This document shows positions 784 through 7,360 of a stretch of DNA of 9,212 nt, piece after piece (position 1 is the stretch's first letter; each line of letters begins with the position of its first letter). Source of the DNA: a virus (Duplodnaviria > Heunggongvirae > Uroviricota > Caudoviricetes). The stretch is from IMG/VR virus record IMGVR_UViG_2657244931_000007. One strand, written 5' to 3'. The notes under the pieces were generated by a model, which saw only the letters and a list, made by a program, of their open reading frames with translations, did no database searches and was not told the DNA's origin. The translations under genes were made by a program, and so were the position numbers.

Positions 784-828
784 AAAAGCCCCTTAATGTA
801 TCGATTTGGCACTACTTCAATGCAAATG

Positions 829-858
829 AGTATACCGTATTCATTTGGTCTGTTTCAA
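829..858 (-). promoter_or_regulatory. Candidate sigma70 promoter for the recombinase gene (-35 TTGAAA, 18-bp spacer, -10 TATACT on the minus strand)
   Basis: Reverse complement of 853..858 is TTGAAA and of 829..834 is TATACT; sits about 45 bp upstream of the recombinase start codon. Confidence 0.35.
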
Positions 859-910
859 GCCTTATAGGTACGGAATATTACACGATTTAGCTGTATTCAT
901 TTGGTATGCC
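835..910. repeat. Direct repeats GTATTCATTTGGT (837..849 and 893..905) just upstream of the recombinase gene; candidate recombinase site (res-like) or operator
   Basis: 13-bp identical direct repeats 56 bp apart, overlapping the predicted recombinase promoter region. Confidence 0.4.
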
Positions 911-1352
911 TAATGGATACACAGGGGGATAGATTAAATGGTGTTCTGTTTATACAGGTTTATTTGTTAGATCAACAATTTGGCATTTCTAAACAGATGT
1001 TTGAACGTTGCCAAATGTATTGACAACACAAGAAAAGGGCTTGCTATGCCACGCATTACACGAAATAAGGCTGTAAAAACAAAATAAATTTTAAAATTTG
1101 CACAAACAAGAAAACTCGTTCAGAAACAAGCAGAACAATTTTTAGCCAACAATTTCTGATGGTGCTCTGTAAGCCGCATTACACAAGGCTTTGCGAAAGT
1201 GATGTAAAAGTGAAGAAAGTTAACATTGCACTTTTAAGCTACTTTTCATTGAATTTTTAGTATGGAATTACACAGGAATAAGTTAGGGATATTCTATGAT
1301 TTACACAGGGAATATAGGGGGATTATGGCACACACATAGAAAGGCATTACAC
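877..1352 (+). repeat. Dispersed array of an ATTACAC(A/G) motif, same orientation (copies at 877, 1055, 1178, 1267, 1299(TTTACAC), 1346; partial ATACACAGG at 917)
   Basis: At least 6 copies in about 480 bp, irregular spacing, often extended to cATTACACagg; candidate protein-binding iterons. Confidence 0.55.
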
Positions 1353-1510
1353 AGAGTGCTATGTGACAAATGGATGTAACGAGAGGTTACATTCAGCTAT
1401 CTGAAATGCTCTCTGTAAGAAAGTAGGTAGTAACGGTAGGTCACTGTGAGCTACCCCCACAGAATTCTGTTACCCCTATCAAGTCTGATACCCGATAAGT
1501 ATAAATAACA

Positions 1511-1611
1511 CCTAGGAAATGATTTCCGATCTATTTAGGAAGTAACCTAGGAAGTGGTTTCCTACCTACTTAGGAAATGAGTTCCTACCTACCTAGGAAA
1601 TGAGTTCCACC
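1511..1611. repeat. Iteron cluster: four copies of a 13-bp palindromic core GGAA(A/G)TG(A/G)(T/G)TTCC with shared CCTA...TACC flanks
   Basis: Cores at 1515..1527 (perfect palindrome GGAAATGATTTCC), 1550..1562, 1573..1585, 1596..1608; the last three centres are 23 bp apart. Confidence 0.7.
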
Positions 1612-1672
1612 AATACTATAATTAAATACTATAATTAAATAATATAAATAATATTCTTTATACTATATATAT
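1612..1672. repeat. Very AT-rich tract with tandem ATACTATAATTAA x2 (1613..1625, 1626..1638); candidate DNA-unwinding element next to the iterons
   Basis: Almost pure A/T directly 3' of the iteron cluster. Confidence 0.5.
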
Positions 1673-1680
1673 GATCTTTT

Positions 1681-1860
1681 GCCTTCCGGCGTTAGCTTCA
1701 CTCTCTGGCAAGCAGCCTTACTCCGCTACCTTTCGGGCTTCGTGGCTGGCCCGTTCCGCTCACACCGAAAGCAAAGCGTTACTTTCTTCGTGTAACTATC
1801 GTTGGCGGTAACGCCCACGAAGAAATACTATTGCGCTGTGCGCAGAAGAGTAATCACCTA
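1681..1860. other. GC-rich island with nested stem-loops; candidate structured non-coding RNA or structured DNA site (strand unknown)
   Basis: Clearly GC-richer than the flanks. 9-bp stem TTCTTCGTG (1784..1792) / CACGAAGAA (1816..1824) encloses GGCG-GTAA-CGCC (1804..1815; GNRA-type tetraloop); second stem CTTTCGG (1730..1736) / CCGAAAG (1765..1771). Confidence 0.35.
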
Positions 1861-1898
1861 ACCAATCATACTGATTGCTACCAATCATACTGATTGCT
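1861..1898. repeat. Perfect tandem duplication of a 19-bp unit ACCAATCATACTGATTGCT, each with internal inverted repeat CAATCA-TAC-TGATTG; candidate operator for a dimeric DNA-binding protein
   Basis: Units at 1861..1879 and 1880..1898 are identical; 6-bp arms with 3-bp spacer inside each. Confidence 0.7.
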
Positions 1899-1923
1899 TA
1901 CGTGTTAACTCTCTCTAACTCTT

Positions 1924-2081
1924 AATTCCACTTCCTACATTTAATAACTCTCGTTATTCTCTGTAGTTGTGTAATTACTCGAAGAGAGAGCGGCTAAAGC
2001 TCAATTACACTCTGCTTTCCTCGTGTAATTTCACTAAGCCTCAATACAATTCCACTTCCTACATTCTGTAGTCGTGTAATT
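1924..2081. repeat. Duplicated module AATTCCACTTCCTACATT + CTGTAG(T/C)(T/C)GTGTAATT; copy 1 is split by a 19-bp hairpin-forming insertion
   Basis: 18-mer identical at 1924..1941 and 2048..2065; 16-mer at 1961..1976 and 2066..2081 (one mismatch); 1942..1960 TAATAACTCTCGTTATTCT is present only in copy 1 and contains AATAAC/GTTATT inverted arms. GTGTAAT (reverse complement of ATTACAC) at 1969, 2023, 2074 and 1790 (GTGTAAC); forward AATTACAC at 2003. Confidence 0.65.
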
Positions 2082-2083
2082 GT

Positions 2084-2115
2084 TTTCGGTGGAAAAGCCA
2101 GAGGCGACACCGAAA
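2084..2115. other. Hairpin TTTCGGTG-N16-CACCGAAA; its 3' arm shares the 10-mer ACACCGAAAG with the hairpin at 1730..1771
   Basis: Perfect 8-bp inverted arms at 2084..2091 and 2108..2115; ACACCGAAAG at 1762..1771 and 2107..2116. Confidence 0.5.
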
Positions 2116-2125
2116 GAGAATTCTG

Positions 2126-2210
2126 ATCTTATTAATCTTATCTATCTTAGTTAATCTTCTTACTTATCTTACTTACTTATCTTACTTTATCTACTTTATT
2201 ATTAATAATA
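2126..2210. repeat. G-depleted T-rich tract of degenerate CTTATCT / TACTTA repeats
   Basis: Only one G (2150) in 85 bp on the plus strand; strong strand asymmetry. Confidence 0.6.
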
Positions 2211-2234
2211 GCTTTATAAGCTCTCTGTAGCTCT

Positions 2235-2294
2235 CTGACGCAAGAAACAGCATTCAGGAAGGGAATCACCTTAGAAAAGTGTTCTTTGCGTCAT
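2235..2294. other. Imperfect inverted repeat CTGACGCAAGAA ... TTCTTTGCGTCA, about 38 bp apart
   Basis: Arms at 2235..2246 and 2282..2294, near-complementary with a one-base indel. Confidence 0.35.
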
Positions 2295-2610
2295 AATGTG
2301 TTTTATGAAGGATTCAGAGGTGTTTCATAACAGGAGTGTATAGAGGATATTTTAATTAATTAAAAATAAGGGGTCTAAATGCTTCTCTAACAACATTAAG
2401 CAGGGTAGGGAATGGAAACGCATTGCCTACACATATAAGCTCACTACAGAGCTTTACAGAGCGTTTTATAAAGTAACTCTCTATCTTATATCTACCATTA
2501 CCTTTTCATATACCTAACAAATACAAAATAAGCCCCTTAAATAAGCCTCTGGCGAGCTAAACAGCCATTACATAAGGGAATGTGTTGCTTTTATCAAAAC
2601 TTCGTTAGAA

Positions 2611-2631
2611 CGCGTTTTAGAGCGTTTTAGA
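2611..2631. repeat. Tandem GCGTTTTAGA x2, with a related AGAGCGTTTTA copy at 2458..2468
   Basis: 2612..2621 and 2622..2631 are identical 10-mers. Confidence 0.5.
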
Positions 2632-2691
2632 CAATAAGGAGGAATAGCACTACACAGAAGAGCACGAATTGCTAAGAAAAAATGTAAGTGC

Positions 2692-2753
2692 ATGAAAAAG
2701 ATCAGATTTTTTTATGAAAAGGTATTGACAAATGTTTCTTTATATGTAATAAT
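2692..2753 (+). promoter_or_regulatory. Early-operon promoter: -35 TTGACA (2725..2730), 17-bp spacer, extended -10 TGtAATAAT (2745..2753); direct repeats ATGAAAA(A/G)G (2692..2700, 2714..2722) upstream and AGGTATT (2720..2726, 2754..2760) bracketing the core
   Basis: Perfect -35 hexamer, 17-bp spacing, TG-extended -10, about 110 bp upstream of the first plus-strand gene. Confidence 0.55.
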
Positions 2754-2807
2754 AGGTATTAGAGGGACAGAAAACATTCTTCTCTAAATAATCAAAATCA
2801 ACGCACT

Positions 2808-2843
2808 TTGAAGCCGTCAGGCTTGCAAGGTGTTTTTTCTTTT
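2808..2843 (+). terminator. Leader hairpin plus T-run between promoter and first gene; attenuator-like
   Basis: Stem AAGCC (2811..2815) / GGCTT (2820..2824) with loop GTCA, extendable with mismatches; palindrome CTTGCAAG at 2822..2829; T-run 2833..2843, directly upstream of the RBS AAGGAG (2852..2857). Confidence 0.3.
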
Positions 2844-2862
2844 AACTGAATAAGGAGTTTTT

Positions 2863-3075: not shown

Positions 3076-3264
3076 ATGAATATTAATTTTGATTCTGCAA
3101 CTTATAACGCGTTGTTAAATCGCGCAAAGGCAGAAGGGAAATCAATTCCAAAACTTGTTAATGAACTACTAATTACAGTCCTTACAAAGGAGGAACTAAA
3201 TGATCAAAAATATCAAAACAATTGCCGAAGCGAAAGCCAAATGTCTAAATCAGAAAGATGGTAA
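3076..3264 (+). CDS. Ribbon-helix-helix (Arc/Mnt/CopG-like) DNA-binding protein, 62 aa; putative transcriptional repressor
   Basis: MNINFDSATYNALLNRAKAEGKSIPKLVNELLITVL fits a beta-strand / helix / helix RHH pattern; RBS AAGGAG at 3062..3067; 3' end overlaps the next gene by 65 nt. Confidence 0.65.
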   Translation: MNINFDSATYNALLNRAKAEGKSIPKLVNELLITVLTKEELNDQKYQNNCRSESQMSKSERW

Positions 3265-3931
3265 ACAAAAATATGTAGTTGTTGAGCAATGGTTGAAGAT
3301 GTTTAAAAAATGGTATTCACCATCTGGTAATGAATACACCGCTACACTGCCAGCCGTTGAAATCTATAGCTATATAGCTGGATTCAATGAACAAGGGCAA
3401 GAATGTTACGCTACTCAAAAAACATTAGCTAATATTGGAATGGTTAGTGATCGCCAGGTTCGCAATATTATAAATATGTTTGTTGATATGGGAGTTCTTT
3501 CTGTAGAGGCACGGGACGGTCAAACATCACTCTATAAAGCATTACCATTTACAGATGCACATATTACTCCCCCAGGAGAATCATCACTCTCTGATCTTTC
3601 TGAGGCAGAAGAAGCACAGGAACAACCTAAAGGCCATAAACAGCCTTCTTTTGATGTTCTTGATGATTGGGATGCGCCTTTGCCGTGGGAGACGGAAGAA
3701 ACACCTGTTTCATCAAGTGAAAAGGTAGCTAATGATAATGAGGAGGATGTGTTAGAGAATTTTGCCTCTCTTATCATCCAGGAGAAACACACACGAACAG
3801 GAGGAGCATCATTTATTGAGTTTGCAAATTCACTAGCTTGTAGATACGGGCTAAAACGACCAAATGGTATTGAGGCATATTTTTCTAAGCATTACCCAAA
3901 TGTATATGACGACTTTGATATTCCATTTTAA
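3200..3931 (+). CDS. Winged-helix-like DNA-binding protein with acidic C-terminal region, 243 aa; candidate replication initiator or regulator
   Basis: Strong RBS AAGGAGG (3187..3193), 6-nt spacing; segment YATQKTLANIGMVSDRQVRNIINMFVDMGVLSVEA resembles a wHTH; C-terminal half is acidic and low-complexity (SEAEEAQEQ ... DDWDAPLPWETEE). Confidence 0.75.
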   Translation: MIKNIKTIAEAKAKCLNQKDGKQKYVVVEQWLKMFKKWYSPSGNEYTATLPAVEIYSYIAGFNEQGQECYATQKTLANIGMVSDRQVRNIINMFVDMGVLSVEARDGQTSLYKALPFTDAHITPPGESSLSDLSEAEEAQEQPKGHKQPSFDVLDDWDAPLPWETEETPVSSSEKVANDNEEDVLENFASLIIQEKHTRTGGASFIEFANSLACRYGLKRPNGIEAYFSKHYPNVYDDFDIPF

Positions 3932-4379: not shown

Positions 4380-4761
4380 GAAAATCGGTGATTCAGCTTC
4401 TCTTCTAAGTAAACCTAAATCTATTCTAAGACGCAAAGACTTTAAAGAGCTAGTTACGCTCACCAAGCATAATAGCGCCCCTGGCGAATGGAAAACAGAG
4501 ATCATAGAACATTCTCCCTCTGTGCCTTGTGGAGATGAATTTAACGCCTTACAAGAAATCTTATCTTCAACACCTGGCGTATTCTGGAAACCTAGAAAAA
4601 GAAAAGAGTATATTGTTGATAGCTCTGATTTACGCAAATACCAGATTTTAGGATTTGAAGACTATAACCACTACGTTGGTTATCTCGCCACCAATGGCCT
4701 AAATAATTTAGTTCCAGACTTTCAAATTTTAGATAATGCTGATCACTATGGAGACTTTTAA
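4351..4761 (+). CDS. Hypothetical protein, 136 aa, basic N-terminus
   Basis: Same-strand ORF in operon context; weak SD AAAGGA about 7 nt upstream. Confidence 0.65.
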   Translation: MAKRKNNVVKKIGDSASLLSKPKSILRRKDFKELVTLTKHNSAPGEWKTEIIEHSPSVPCGDEFNALQEILSSTPGVFWKPRKRKEYIVDSSDLRKYQILGFEDYNHYVGYLATNGLNNLVPDFQILDNADHYGDF

Positions 4762-4762
4762 T

Positions 4763-5098
4763 ATGAACAAAAACACGTATGACACAATTTACTCACTAAT
4801 TAATTATTATGAGGATGATTACCTCCTGCCTTTAAACCGCGCTGAACTTGAAGCATACAAAGAAAACACGCCAGCGGCACTAAATGAGGCGTTTAAACAC
4901 TGGGATTTAGCTGTGAATGCCTTTGAGCACCTCTCTAAGCGTGTAGAGATGCTCTGTAAGCGTGAGAACGCATACCTGACCTGCTGTCAGATATGGGAGC
5001 TATCAAATTGGATAGAAGGTATTGAATCGGACGTTCGCTATGTAGGAGACGGACTTGTTGAACTAGCTCAACGCTTAGGCGCTATCACAGAAGAATAA
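4763..5098 (+). CDS. Hypothetical protein, 111 aa (start chosen at the ATG at 4763 rather than the ORF-track start at 4736)
   Basis: GGAG at 4749..4752 gives proper spacing to the ATG at 4763 and removes the overlap with the upstream gene; the ATGs at 4736 and 4748 have no SD. Confidence 0.65.
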   Translation: MNKNTYDTIYSLINYYEDDYLLPLNRAELEAYKENTPAALNEAFKHWDLAVNAFEHLSKRVEMLCKRENAYLTCCQIWELSNWIEGIESDVRYVGDGLVELAQRLGAITEE

Positions 5099-5103
5099 AA
5101 AAA

Positions 5104-5120
5104 GCAACAAAAAAGTTGTA
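5104..5120. promoter_or_regulatory. 17-bp element GCAACAAAAAAGTTGTA (CAAC-N6-GTTG inverted repeat), copy 1, 7 bp upstream of the late -35
   Basis: 15/17 identical to the copy at 5390..5406. Confidence 0.5.
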
Positions 5121-5127
5121 AAATATC

Positions 5128-5156
5128 TTGACATTTCATATATTGTATGTTAATAT
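5128..5156 (+). promoter_or_regulatory. Late-operon promoter: -35 TTGACA (5128..5133), 17-bp spacer, TG-extended -10 TAATAT (5151..5156)
   Basis: Same architecture as the early promoter at 2725. Confidence 0.55.
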
Positions 5157-5162
5157 AATTAT

Positions 5163-5380
5163 ATAGGGGTGATTATTTTTCCTTTATTGGTTCGATATTA
5201 AAAATTCTTCTTGTCGTTAAAGGGGAGTAAAATCTCCGCTCCCCGCTTCTCCTCCTCCTTAAGTGTCATTATTACCTCTTTTTTCCTTTGTTATGCATAC
5301 ATCTTGGAGTATGCATAACATAGGGTAATTACATAGGTACAAGTTAATAAAAGGCGGCTTTAAATGCTGCCTTTTATTTT
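5163..5380 (+). ncRNA. Candidate ~215-nt leader or small RNA from the late promoter to the intrinsic terminator
   Basis: Contains hairpin GGGGAG/CTCCCC (5222..5244), CU-rich anti-SD-like tract CTTCTCCTCCTCCTT (5246..5260), perfect 11-bp inverted repeat GTTATGCATAC-N8-GTATGCATAAC (5290..5319), and ends at the terminator 5352..5380; no convincing ORF inside. Confidence 0.35.
5352..5380 (+). terminator. Rho-independent terminator (stem AGGCGGC / GCUGCCU with one G-U pair, loop UUUAAAU, then UUUUAUUUU)
   Basis: 7-bp stem at 5352..5358 / 5366..5372, followed by the T-run 5373..5380. Confidence 0.55.
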
Positions 5381-5389
5381 GCCCGTTAT

Positions 5390-5406
5390 GCAACTTAAAA
5401 GTTGTA
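5390..5406. promoter_or_regulatory. 17-bp element GCAACTTAAAAGTTGTA, copy 2, just past the leader terminator and 37 bp upstream of the 5443 gene
   Basis: 15/17 identical to the copy at 5104..5120. Confidence 0.5.
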
Positions 5407-5442
5407 TTTCTTACTTTAAACAAGGTAACAAGGTTTATATAA

Positions 5443-5655
5443 ATGTTGTTCTTAAATGATAAAGAGCAAATCATCAAGTATAAAGATGAAATGCTGAAAA
5501 TTAATCCACAAATTACCGAAATGGTAGCTAAATACGCTGGGTGTTCTGTCGAGGAAGTAGAAAGATGTGTTGAAAAATATTTTTCTCCTTCTTCTCCGTC
5601 TACACCTTCCCTTAATGAATTAATCAAATTAAAAGCTAAGGAGATTACTAAATGA
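5443..5655 (+). CDS. Hypothetical protein, 70 aa, first gene of the structural operon
   Basis: ATGA start/stop overlap with the next gene suggests translational coupling; weak SD AAGG upstream. Confidence 0.6.
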   Translation: MLFLNDKEQIIKYKDEMLKINPQITEMVAKYAGCSVEEVERCVEKYFSPSSPSTPSLNELIKLKAKEITK

Positions 5656-6041: not shown

Positions 6042-7070
6042 ATGATTCTAGGTAATGATTACGTTGATTTAGCTCCTCTGTTCTCTGCGCATAGCACTAG
6101 AAATTATCTGCTTTCTACTCTTGATTTTACGGATTCTGTAGGGGTTACATCTCATAAAGTAGCTGTTTCCCAGCTTGTCGAAAGCAACGAATCTCTCTTT
6201 AACAAAGAGACAAGCCGTTTTAGTTCTGAACACAATGTTACTAAGCGAGAACAAGGTAAAGAATGGCTGATCGAAATCCCTTACTTCCTGCGTGAGGATG
6301 TTATCCGTCCCTCTGATGTTCAAGGCAAACGTAAGTCTGGCACTGATTTTCAGGAAACACTCACTGATATTTATGCGGAATATATCGCTAAACACCACGT
6401 AGCGTATCAGCGCACTAAAGAGAGCGTGCTGGCGGCTTCTTTGTTCTCTGGCAAAACTTACACGCCTAAAACTGATGATGTGTTAATTGAGTGGGGCAAG
6501 CTGTTTAACGTATCAGCTATGAAAGCCACTGTGAACGCCTCCAGCACTGACACCACGAAGATTTTTAAAGAATTTGATCAGATTGCTACTGACATTATCG
6601 AAAAAGCACAAAGCCAGGCGGCTGCTGTAGAGCGTATTGTTGTTTTCTGTAAGCCGGAAGCCTTCTCTGCAATTCGATTCTCTGCTGGTATGGCAAACGC
6701 ATTCCAGTACGTAAGCCCACTGGAAGAAGGGAACGTTGTGTATCAGCGTCGTGACCTGCTACCAGGAGTGACAGCGTTCACTATTCCAGGAACTAACATT
6801 GATGTTGTTAAACTGGTAGATCCGCTACACCTGGCACATATGACCGCAGACGCTGTAGCTGTGCCTAAATTCGCTAAAGGCTCTAACGTATATCAGAACA
6901 TCTACGGGGCTGCTTCCAGCACCTTTGAACTGATCAATGCCGATCCTACTGAGGTGTACAGCTATAGCTATGAATCTTCTCGTGGTGATGCTGTGAACGT
7001 TGTTACAGAGAATAGCCAGATGGTTGTAAACCACGGTGTAGGCTTCTCCGTTCAAATCACTGTTAAATAA
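6042..7070 (+). CDS. Putative phage major capsid protein, 342 aa (possibly lambda gpE-like; tentative)
   Basis: Size, beta-rich composition, and a strong intrinsic terminator directly downstream, as often seen after major capsid genes. Short segments (LAASLFSGKTYTPK, DLLPGVTAFTIPG) loosely recall lambda gpE from memory; not verified. Confidence 0.45.
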   Translation: MILGNDYVDLAPLFSAHSTRNYLLSTLDFTDSVGVTSHKVAVSQLVESNESLFNKETSRFSSEHNVTKREQGKEWLIEIPYFLREDVIRPSDVQGKRKSGTDFQETLTDIYAEYIAKHHVAYQRTKESVLAASLFSGKTYTPKTDDVLIEWGKLFNVSAMKATVNASSTDTTKIFKEFDQIATDIIEKAQSQAAAVERIVVFCKPEAFSAIRFSAGMANAFQYVSPLEEGNVVYQRRDLLPGVTAFTIPGTNIDVVKLVDPLHLAHMTADAVAVPKFAKGSNVYQNIYGAASSTFELINADPTEVYSYSYESSRGDAVNVVTENSQMVVNHGVGFSVQITVK

Positions 7071-7089
7071 TATTTTAACGTGTAATAGA

Positions 7090-7123
7090 GGCGTGGCGTG
7101 TATTCACGCTTCGCCTTTTTTTT
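7090..7123 (+). terminator. Strong rho-independent terminator after the capsid-like gene
   Basis: GC-rich stem GGCGTGGCGTG / CACGCTTCGCC (7090..7115) with TATT loop, followed by 8 Ts (7116..7123) and more T-rich sequence. Confidence 0.75.
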
Positions 7124-7156
7124 ATTTATTTTTAAATTTTGAGAGGTGATTAAAAT

Positions 7157-7360
7157 ATGGAAGTGATTTTGAAATCAAAAAATGGTGTACACGTACATTT
7201 AGATGCTAATGATTCTAGAGGCTTGTTAAATCTGAAATATCTATGTTCTCTCTTAGATGTTCCATATGAAGGCGTAAAAGCCCGTATGTTCAGACTAAAC
7301 GAGAGTATTGATCAGGCTCTACACCATTTCTTAAGCAAAGAAGGTGATAAAAATGATTAA
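7157..7360 (+). CDS. Hypothetical protein, 67 aa
   Basis: RBS GAGAGGTGA at 7141..7149; only about 34 bp after the terminator, so likely expressed by read-through. Confidence 0.6.
   Translation: MEVILKSKNGVHVHLDANDSRGLLNLKYLCSLLDVPYEGVKARMFRLNESIDQALHHFLSKEGDKND

Follow-up and report, generated by a model that had tools for sequence, protein, structure and literature searches.

What is a GC-rich patch with nested hairpins doing in the non-coding DNA of an otherwise AT-rich viral sequence? The question is posed by IMG/VR record IMGVR_UViG_2657244931_000007 (Caudoviricetes), whose 9,212-nt stretch, analysed here in full, is called the window. An initial annotation, made from the sequence alone, had marked positions 1681–1860 as a GC-rich island and proposed a structured RNA, for example an antisense copy-number-control RNA, or else an oriT-like or nick site. 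The enrichment itself is confirmed: GC content is 0.539 in this segment against 0.383 for the whole window, the highest value among all 180-nt windows of the 9.2 kb. The patch is, however, not a separate 180-nt island but the opening quarter of a module that is about 800 nt long. We describe this module as an origin-associated folded non-coding element, with a real chance that it represents a new class.

The window matches part of a ~12.5 kb island in Escherichia coli Res13-Lact-PEA14-20 at 97.7% identity, bounded by a tRNA-Thr gene (beside proA) on one side and a tyrosine integrase on the other. The gene-free stretch that contains the module is followed by small ORFs and then by a Rep-like protein (Table 1). 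The island also encodes a major capsid protein of the lambda gpE type and a protein resembling a tail tape measure, and a gene for a baseplate protein lies just beyond the window edge. By gene content the island looks like an uncharacterised phage satellite, and short stretches at 96–99% identity tie it to phi92/rV5-like virulent phages. Of 5,426 complete E. coli genomes, about 760 contain some part of it, and roughly one E. coli genome in ten appears to bear such a satellite-like island; the GC-rich patch occurs in 438 of the 5,426, nearly always at 95% identity or more, with no annotation under it. Our literature search found no description of the island family or its non-coding region, and a tRNA/tmRNA search of the sequence found none. 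Positions 7082–7159, past the capsid gene and ahead of the following ORF, gave a weak, sub-threshold Rfam match to the caiA RNA (28.9 bits, E = 0.15). There a GC hairpin with a T-run precedes a ribosome-binding site and an ATG, in all likelihood no more than a normal terminator and the start of translation.

Table 1. Features of the window in and around the non-coding module (helix and hairpin names as used in the text).
Feature	Position	Strand	Remarks
Serine recombinase, 179 aa	244–783	−	
Gene-free stretch, about 2 kb	784–2862		GC content 0.363
Iterons, ACCTAGGAAATGAxTTCC-type	1510–1610	none	Direct-repeat family D1
AT-rich stretch, presumed DNA unwinding element	1611–1680	none	(TA)n; GATC at 1673–1676
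Whole hairpin-dense non-coding module	1681–2480	+	About 800 nt here, about 560 nt in other lineages
Hairpin H1, GCC-TTCC-GGC	1681–1690	+	GGCG-N5-6-CGCC at the same place in other lineages
Nearly invariant core of 64 nt, CACTCTCTGGCAAGCAGCC...CGTTCCGCTCA	1699–1762	+	88–100% identical in lineages A–E
7-bp stem of the initial annotation, CTTTCGG/CCGAAAG	1730–1771	+	Lineage-specific
T-shaped three-way hairpin	1784–1824	+	P1 1784–1792/1816–1824, P2 1794–1803, P3 1804–1815
Hairpin P5, GCGC-TGT-GCGC	1833–1843	+	Kept in nearly all lineages; loop TAT in some
Hairpin P6, CAATCA-TAC-TGATTG	1861–1898	+	Repeat D5; tandem pair in the window
Long hairpin P8, GGCT-AA-AG ... CT-A-AGCC	1992–2040	+	Inner helix AATTACAC/GTGTAATT
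Second stem-enclosed module, TTTCGGTG ... CACCGAAA around GCC-AGA-GGC	2084–2115	+	Repeat D3
Sigma-70 operon promoter, TTGACA-17-AATAAT with TG	2725–2753	+	11/12 matches; right-hand limit of the module
Rep-like initiator, 243 aa, wHTH of HTH_36 type	3200–3931	+	Resembles lambda O and DnaD-like initiators/loaders

To the left of the module lie three or four iterons of about 18 nt each with internal dyad symmetry, followed by a 70-nt AT-rich stretch (GC content 0.305 for 1501–1700) that stops exactly at the start of the conserved module. The junction, TATGATC/TTTTGCC, is identical in all type-A islands regardless of their iterons. Among twelve E. coli islands the iteron block is exchanged for at least five unrelated repeat types, and five iteron types match five classes of the Rep N-terminal wHTH domain one-to-one. 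These domains are 18–49% identical between classes and at least 90% identical within a class, and the C-terminal half of Rep is common to islands of differing iteron class. Because iteron type and wHTH class change together, we take positions 1510–1680 to be the replication origin of the island, of the iteron (theta) type.

The iteron block and the Rep N-terminal domain swap as a specificity pair of at least five classes (1510–1610 and 3200–3600 in the window; loci L002–L012), and the approximately 1.5 kb between iterons and rep, comprising the hairpin module, the promoter and small ORFs, stays constant despite the swaps. Short repeats also flank the origin: the 7–9-nt motif (C/A)ATTACACA has five copies to the left (1052–1354, + strand), and its complement GTGTAA(T)T has four to the right (1788–2081, + strand), some of them helix arms. 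Lineage B has TATGCAC as a repeated motif at the matching place (6370–6590 in locus L013). Repeats of this type may be operator or weak DnaA-box-like sites.

Relatives of the module were gathered with BLAST and with scans for exact patterns in genome, viral and metagenome collections, giving approximately 70 loci in about ten lineages, labelled A–E. Scans for distant relatives in genome contigs, metagenomes and viral sequences returned about ten lineages only, all with the same core, and the remaining matches (e.g., L027 and L071–L082) were rejected as coincidences in coding sequence. One relative (L025) comes from Enterobacter nematophilus, and relatives of the L013 type are E. coli islands that occupy other tRNA genes and have, at the position of the serine recombinase, a small tyrosine recombinase (186 aa, 5429–5989 in L013) instead. 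Capsid identity is as low as 19% among islands with a near-identical core (window 6042–7070 against L013 11346–12386), and a locus search based on the capsid protein was dropped for this reason. Since the same core stands beside capsids this diverged and beside different recombinases, the non-coding module would be either horizontally exchanged or far more constrained than the island genes. The near-invariance of the core while the capsids are 19% identical also argues, whichever reading is taken, for a conserved partner encoded outside the island.

The order of elements is the same in every lineage: iterons, AT-rich stretch with GATC, small hairpin, core, hairpins, GCGC-TGT-GCGC, more hairpins, strong TTGACA promoter and first gene. 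In each, the module begins at the end of the AT-rich stretch with its orientation unchanged, and its conserved blocks and helices are shared, in order, between the window and lineages B–E. Among E. coli islands with unrelated iterons the module is 97–99% identical to about position 2300 and beyond.

Both stems that the initial annotation had drawn are present in the window. The 7-bp stem (CTTTCGG at 1730–1736 with CCGAAAG at 1765–1771) is not conserved, as its 3′ arm is missing in lineages B–E and a C of its 5′ arm is deleted in 4 of 12 close homologues. The 9-bp stem, formed by TTCTTCGTG (1784–1792) and CACGAAGAA (1816–1824) around GGCG-GTAA-CGCC at 1804–1815, is kept by compensatory change in relatives. 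The region had also been called non-coding, with which the homologues agree: the sole ORF over the patch (1671–1811, 46 aa) is rejected as a gene because its frame is broken by several 1-nt indels in close homologues. The excess of folding over chance depends on scale. The full 180 nt fold only marginally better than shuffled sequences (z = −1.5 for the + strand and −2.3 for the − strand), whereas the 41-nt stem-enclosed segment alone is clear, with z = −3.3 under RNA parameters and −4.8 under DNA parameters.

The 9-bp stem is the outer helix, P1, of a three-way hairpin in which P1 encloses P2 and P3 in every lineage, usually without unpaired junction bases. In lineage A, P1 has the arms given above, P2 is AAC-TATC-GTT and P3 is GGCG-GTAA-CGCC, as in the window. 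The corresponding helices are GTGCAA/TTGCAC, TGGC-TTT-GCCA and CCGT-GAA(A)-ACGG in lineage B; TCGTGC/GCACGA, TAAC-TTC-GTTA (AAAC/GTTT in L028) and CTGAC-GAGA-GTCAG in lineage C; and TTGTGCC/GGCACAA, AGGC-TTTG-GCCT and TGAC-GTGA-GTCA in lineage D. Lineage E shares P1 and P2 with lineage D and has TCGT-GAA-ACGA as P3. With DNA parameters the minimum-energy fold is the identical T shape in all five lineages (z = −3.4 to −4.8); with RNA parameters the folds are less uniform (z = −1.7 to −3.8).

The 32 distinct helix versions contain 182 pairs, of which 176 are Watson–Crick, two G·T, three A·C and one of another kind, and shuffling the 3′ arms gave 84 ± 6 canonical pairs. Covariation in homologues, which the initial annotation had named as a check on its stems, was counted in nine non-A sequences (type-A rows were left out) registered by hand to the structure via N-padding, because MAFFT alignments of the three-way hairpin were structurally incorrect and MAFFT alone did not recover the structure. 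In this hand-registered alignment 95.9% of cells are paired, whereas shuffles give 73.7%, with none of 500 reaching the observed value, and both sides have changed in 17 of 33 pairs. Sliding the partners by one to three columns left 24–37% of cells paired, and the covariation score is 0.513 against 0.172 for the control. One-sided changes of the G·U type number 0 in 246 cells of the covarying helices, with helix ends fixed by Watson–Crick complementarity so that terminal G·U pairs are under-counted. It seems safe to say, from these comparisons of sequence, that a folded single strand is under selection. Choosing the strand through G·U versus A·C counts was tried and abandoned, as RNAalifold is biased to the folded strand and the curated helices show no asymmetry.

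Similar behaviour is seen in the rest of the module. Helix P4 occurs as TTCGCC/GGCGAA, TTATGCC/GGCATAA, TTTGCC/GGCAAA or TTACGCC/GGCGTAA. Hairpin P6 is single-copy in every relative examined, its 19-nt tandem doubling being seen in the window alone; it covaries (AU/UA 5:3 and CG/UA), and its stem survives loop indels. The outer pairs of P8 covary as GG/CC versus AG/CT, and its inner helix is ACTG/CAGT, ACCGT/ACGGT or CGT/ACG in other lineages. The second stem-enclosed module is a paralogue of 1788–1815, and its block GCCAGAGG is kept in all lineages. The window's copy further contains an internal duplication of approximately 105–124 nt (1924–1941 equals 2048–2065; 1960–1976 resembles 2065–2081) and a CTTAYCTTA-type microsatellite (2125–2215) whose length differs between strains.

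Promoters equivalent to the operon promoter at the right-hand limit (11–12 of 12 matches) are found in loci L013, L014 and L025. In the leader between this promoter and the first gene (2863) lies an intrinsic terminator (2804–2843) with the 12-bp stem CACTTTGAAGCC-GTCA-GGCTTGCAAGGTG followed by T6CT4, and a strong intrinsic leader terminator occupies the same interval in all lineages (about 7760–7800 in L014). The leader terminator suggests that the island operon may be controlled by antitermination. A pairing of the core with the operon leader of the P4 CI-like kind was rejected, the match of 6–7 nt being at chance level.

What form the folded strand takes is a matter of two main readings. 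Our slight preference goes to single-stranded DNA over a large structured RNA because of the uniform folds under DNA parameters and the fixed position and orientation of the module relative to the unwinding element. Tentatively, then, and as the most plausible account while still short of probable, the module is an origin-flanking folded single-stranded DNA initiation region, ssi/sso-like and unusually large. In this reading the origin assignment, the conservation and the compensatory changes are shown, and we infer the DNA form and the priming role. The module flanks an iteron-type origin on its right and would function in folded, single-stranded form rather than as an array of protein sites in duplex DNA. 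Rep bound to the iterons would open the neighbouring AT-rich stretch, after which a helicase would unwind the DNA rightwards. The + strand would thereby be exposed as single-stranded DNA and fold into hairpins kept free of SSB, and the 64-nt core, mostly unpaired and pyrimidine-rich, would be offered to a conserved host or helper replication enzyme. Candidates for this enzyme are primase, a PriA-type primosome or RNA polymerase, any of which might lay the first primer.

Several observations are consistent with single-stranded DNA. The iterons and AT-rich stretch directly adjoin the module at 1510–1680, and + strand loops are T/C-rich or of the G..A type. Absence of G·U together with double-sided changes is the usual hint of a motif working as DNA or on both strands; here changes are double-sided only, and two G·T against three A·C pairs indicate neither strand asymmetry nor tolerance of wobble. 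A search for sigma-70 promoters with at least 9 of 12 matches that could serve the element found none conserved on either strand in four lineages. Candidates for a sigma-54 promoter or DnaA boxes in the core, judged by eye, were partial matches only and were discarded. Against a DNA form, the ssi and sso signals described so far measure about 100–300 nt, a length that the module exceeds several-fold, and it has no sequence likeness to G4-type or plasmid ssi signals. In a blastn search of a phage collection expected to include G4 and phiX174 there was no meaningful match; a hit of minus-strand positions 1706–1743 to the 3′ end of T7 gene 10B (24113–24148; 84% over 38 nt, E = 3) was judged to be chance. 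The counted helix alignment, moreover, was fitted by hand to the structure, and the conserved unpaired blocks and the AA/A internal loop lie far from the origin, more in the manner of a large RNA.

These last features lead to the second reading, a serious possibility though again less than probable, which takes the module for a large, structured and so far undescribed non-coding RNA, some 0.56–0.8 kb long and transcribed from the + strand between the AT-rich origin region and a stem with a U-rich run. The 9-bp stem would belong to a three-way-junction domain and the core would be the binding site of a conserved factor from host or helper; alternatively, the transcript might be a pre-primer or origin-activating RNA acting on replication in cis. 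The many covarying helices with a three-way junction and the conserved internal loop and unpaired blocks over more than 500 nt suit an RNA, as does a size near that of the ROOL, GOLLD and OLE RNAs, which are also found in phage-related DNA. The P3 loops on the + strand are G..A-closed and in four lineages of the GNRA type (GTAA, GAAA, GAGA, GTGA), a typical RNA motif that speaks for this reading and against DNA. The same holds for a terminator-like feature of the + strand, a weak stem and then a GTTTT run (GTTTTG at the 3′ end), which 8 of 10 lineages have ahead of the operon promoter, and TATAAT/TATAAG boxes recur in the upstream AT-rich stretch.

Other properties fit an RNA poorly. The covarying helices are nearly without G·U, G·T and A·C being equally rare, and the sole strong promoter lies downstream and points away. 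Base counts of the module's + strand (A 224, C 175, G 141, T 260) make it C/T-rich and G-poor, which is unusual for a structured RNA, and the purine-rich − strand has no GNRA loops. The Rfam scan proposed with the initial annotation returned no match to Rfam 15 covariance models within 1500–2700 at E-values up to 10, nor in the L014 homologue, at three sensitivities; the families not matched by the module include ctRNA, C4, ROOL and GOLLD. What survives of the suggested structured RNA is a functional folded nucleic acid, not a chance rise in GC, with helices kept through double substitutions; the wobble pairs expected on the transcribed strand of an RNA are not seen.

A third account, which we consider unlikely, has the module unfolded in vivo, its inverted repeats being duplex sites or cruciforms for dimeric island or host DNA-binding proteins that might organise the origin or repress the operon. 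It would accommodate the almost entirely Watson–Crick, strand-symmetric pairs and the lineage-specific short repeats that flank the origin (ATTACACA/GTGTAAT in the window, TATGCAC in L013). It would also demand about ten distinct proteins for about ten distinct palindromes, and the hairpins are nested in an outer stem without unpaired junction bases, unlike operators. Stem sequences are free while island proteins are highly diverged, and the stems always survive loop indels, both of which speak against such sites.

An antisense copy-control RNA is expected to overlap the rep mRNA or its leader. A small RNA of this kind, or an oriT/nick site, would account for a GC-rich stable stem in AT-rich non-coding DNA beside a replicon but is very improbable, given that the patch lies about 0.9 kb upstream of an operon promoter (2725–2753) that points away from it towards rep at 3200, that the search for a promoter and terminator pair bracketing a small RNA at the patch found none and no ctRNA family matches, that there is no relaxase among the window's ten largest proteins and the sequence is absent from the 72,556 plasmids of PLSDB, and that conservation extends over a unit of about 800 nt instead of 180.

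In phage muut, a virulent, phi92-like Justusliebigvirus, the gene muut_154 specifies a protein of 332 aa with two tandem wHTH domains (4630–5628 in locus L083). Of these, the second shares 91% identity with the DNA-binding domain of the island Rep (window 3287–3565, Rep residues 30–122), the first has the Rep N-terminal sequence of another iteron class (L002/L003/L004/L007), and the shared C-terminal half of Rep is missing. No iterons of the window type were found within the 60 kb of phage muut examined. From its sequence, muut_154 might serve the phage as a decoy or a trigger, binding satellite iterons of two specificities.

Beyond the preferred single-stranded DNA form, the module may belong to an undescribed class of large folded nucleic acid, either an RNA of about 0.6 kb or an outsized single-stranded DNA origin organiser, specific to a satellite family of the Enterobacteriaceae that apparently parasitises phi92/rV5-like phages. 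Its 64-nt core would be the contact point for a conserved enzyme of host or helper, and satellite replication or exploitation of the helper would be impossible without it. We regard this extended proposal as possible, if on the doubtful side. The module is widespread in E. coli, yet unannotated and unmatched in Rfam and in the phage and plasmid collections. As an RNA it would add a class of large structured RNAs in E. coli, an organism in which experiments come easily. As single-stranded DNA it would be the largest known fold linked to an origin, and would show a satellite whose Rep/iteron cassettes are swappable keeping its interface to the replication machinery of host or helper constant. 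In either case it opens a way into an unstudied satellite family, one that trades DNA-binding domains with phi92/rV5-like phages.

Among known systems, ssi and sso signals lie near origins as folded single-stranded DNA that is orientation-specific, with free stems and short invariant parts that are read by host enzymes. The module resembles ssi signals (G4-type primase sites, phiX174-type PriA sites, ssiA and ssiB of RSF1010) in having hairpins kept as structure, and its place immediately past the unwinding element is a fitting one. It differs in size, known ssi signals measuring about 40–150 nt against 560–800 nt with a 64-nt invariant core, and in lacking sequence similarity to the phages and plasmids searched, so that the homology test for ssi failed. 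The ssoA, ssoU, ssoT and ssoW regions are non-coding, 150–300 nt long, with several hairpins, conservation of structure above sequence and short invariant motifs, and are read as single-stranded DNA by host RNA polymerase. Hairpins with short invariant motifs are what the module shares with the sso of rolling-circle plasmids and the minus-strand origin of filamentous phages, but those replicons use an HUH Rep and rolling-circle replication, whereas the island relies on an initiator of the iteron/wHTH kind and was not found to encode an HUH protein.

Parvovirus ITRs and the fold-back telomeres of Streptomyces have an outer palindrome, two small hairpins and G..A-closed loops, and prime on single-stranded DNA. 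Their T shape matches P1/P2/P3, a resemblance that is architectural only, as those structures are at the ends of linear genomes and the T-hairpin of the module is internal to an integrated island. The ctRNA, RNA I and CopA antisense RNAs likewise have stable stem-loops in the non-coding control region of a replicon, but the module is much larger, is not antisense to rep mRNA, is unbracketed and matches no family. The ROOL and GOLLD RNAs and ColE1 RNA II are, like the module, multi-hairpin non-coding elements of 0.5–0.8 kb in mobile or phage-related DNA, and RNA II is in addition a structured transcript linked to an origin. In contrast to these, the module has no Rfam match, almost no G·U and no identified promoter, and ColE1-type origins have neither the Rep protein nor the iterons of the island. 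Because the homology test for ssi failed, and because the wobble pairs expected of an RNA are nearly absent and no conserved promoter was identified, the module can be filed under neither class, and the ssi/sso regions and the large phage-associated RNAs are the known systems that it is most like.
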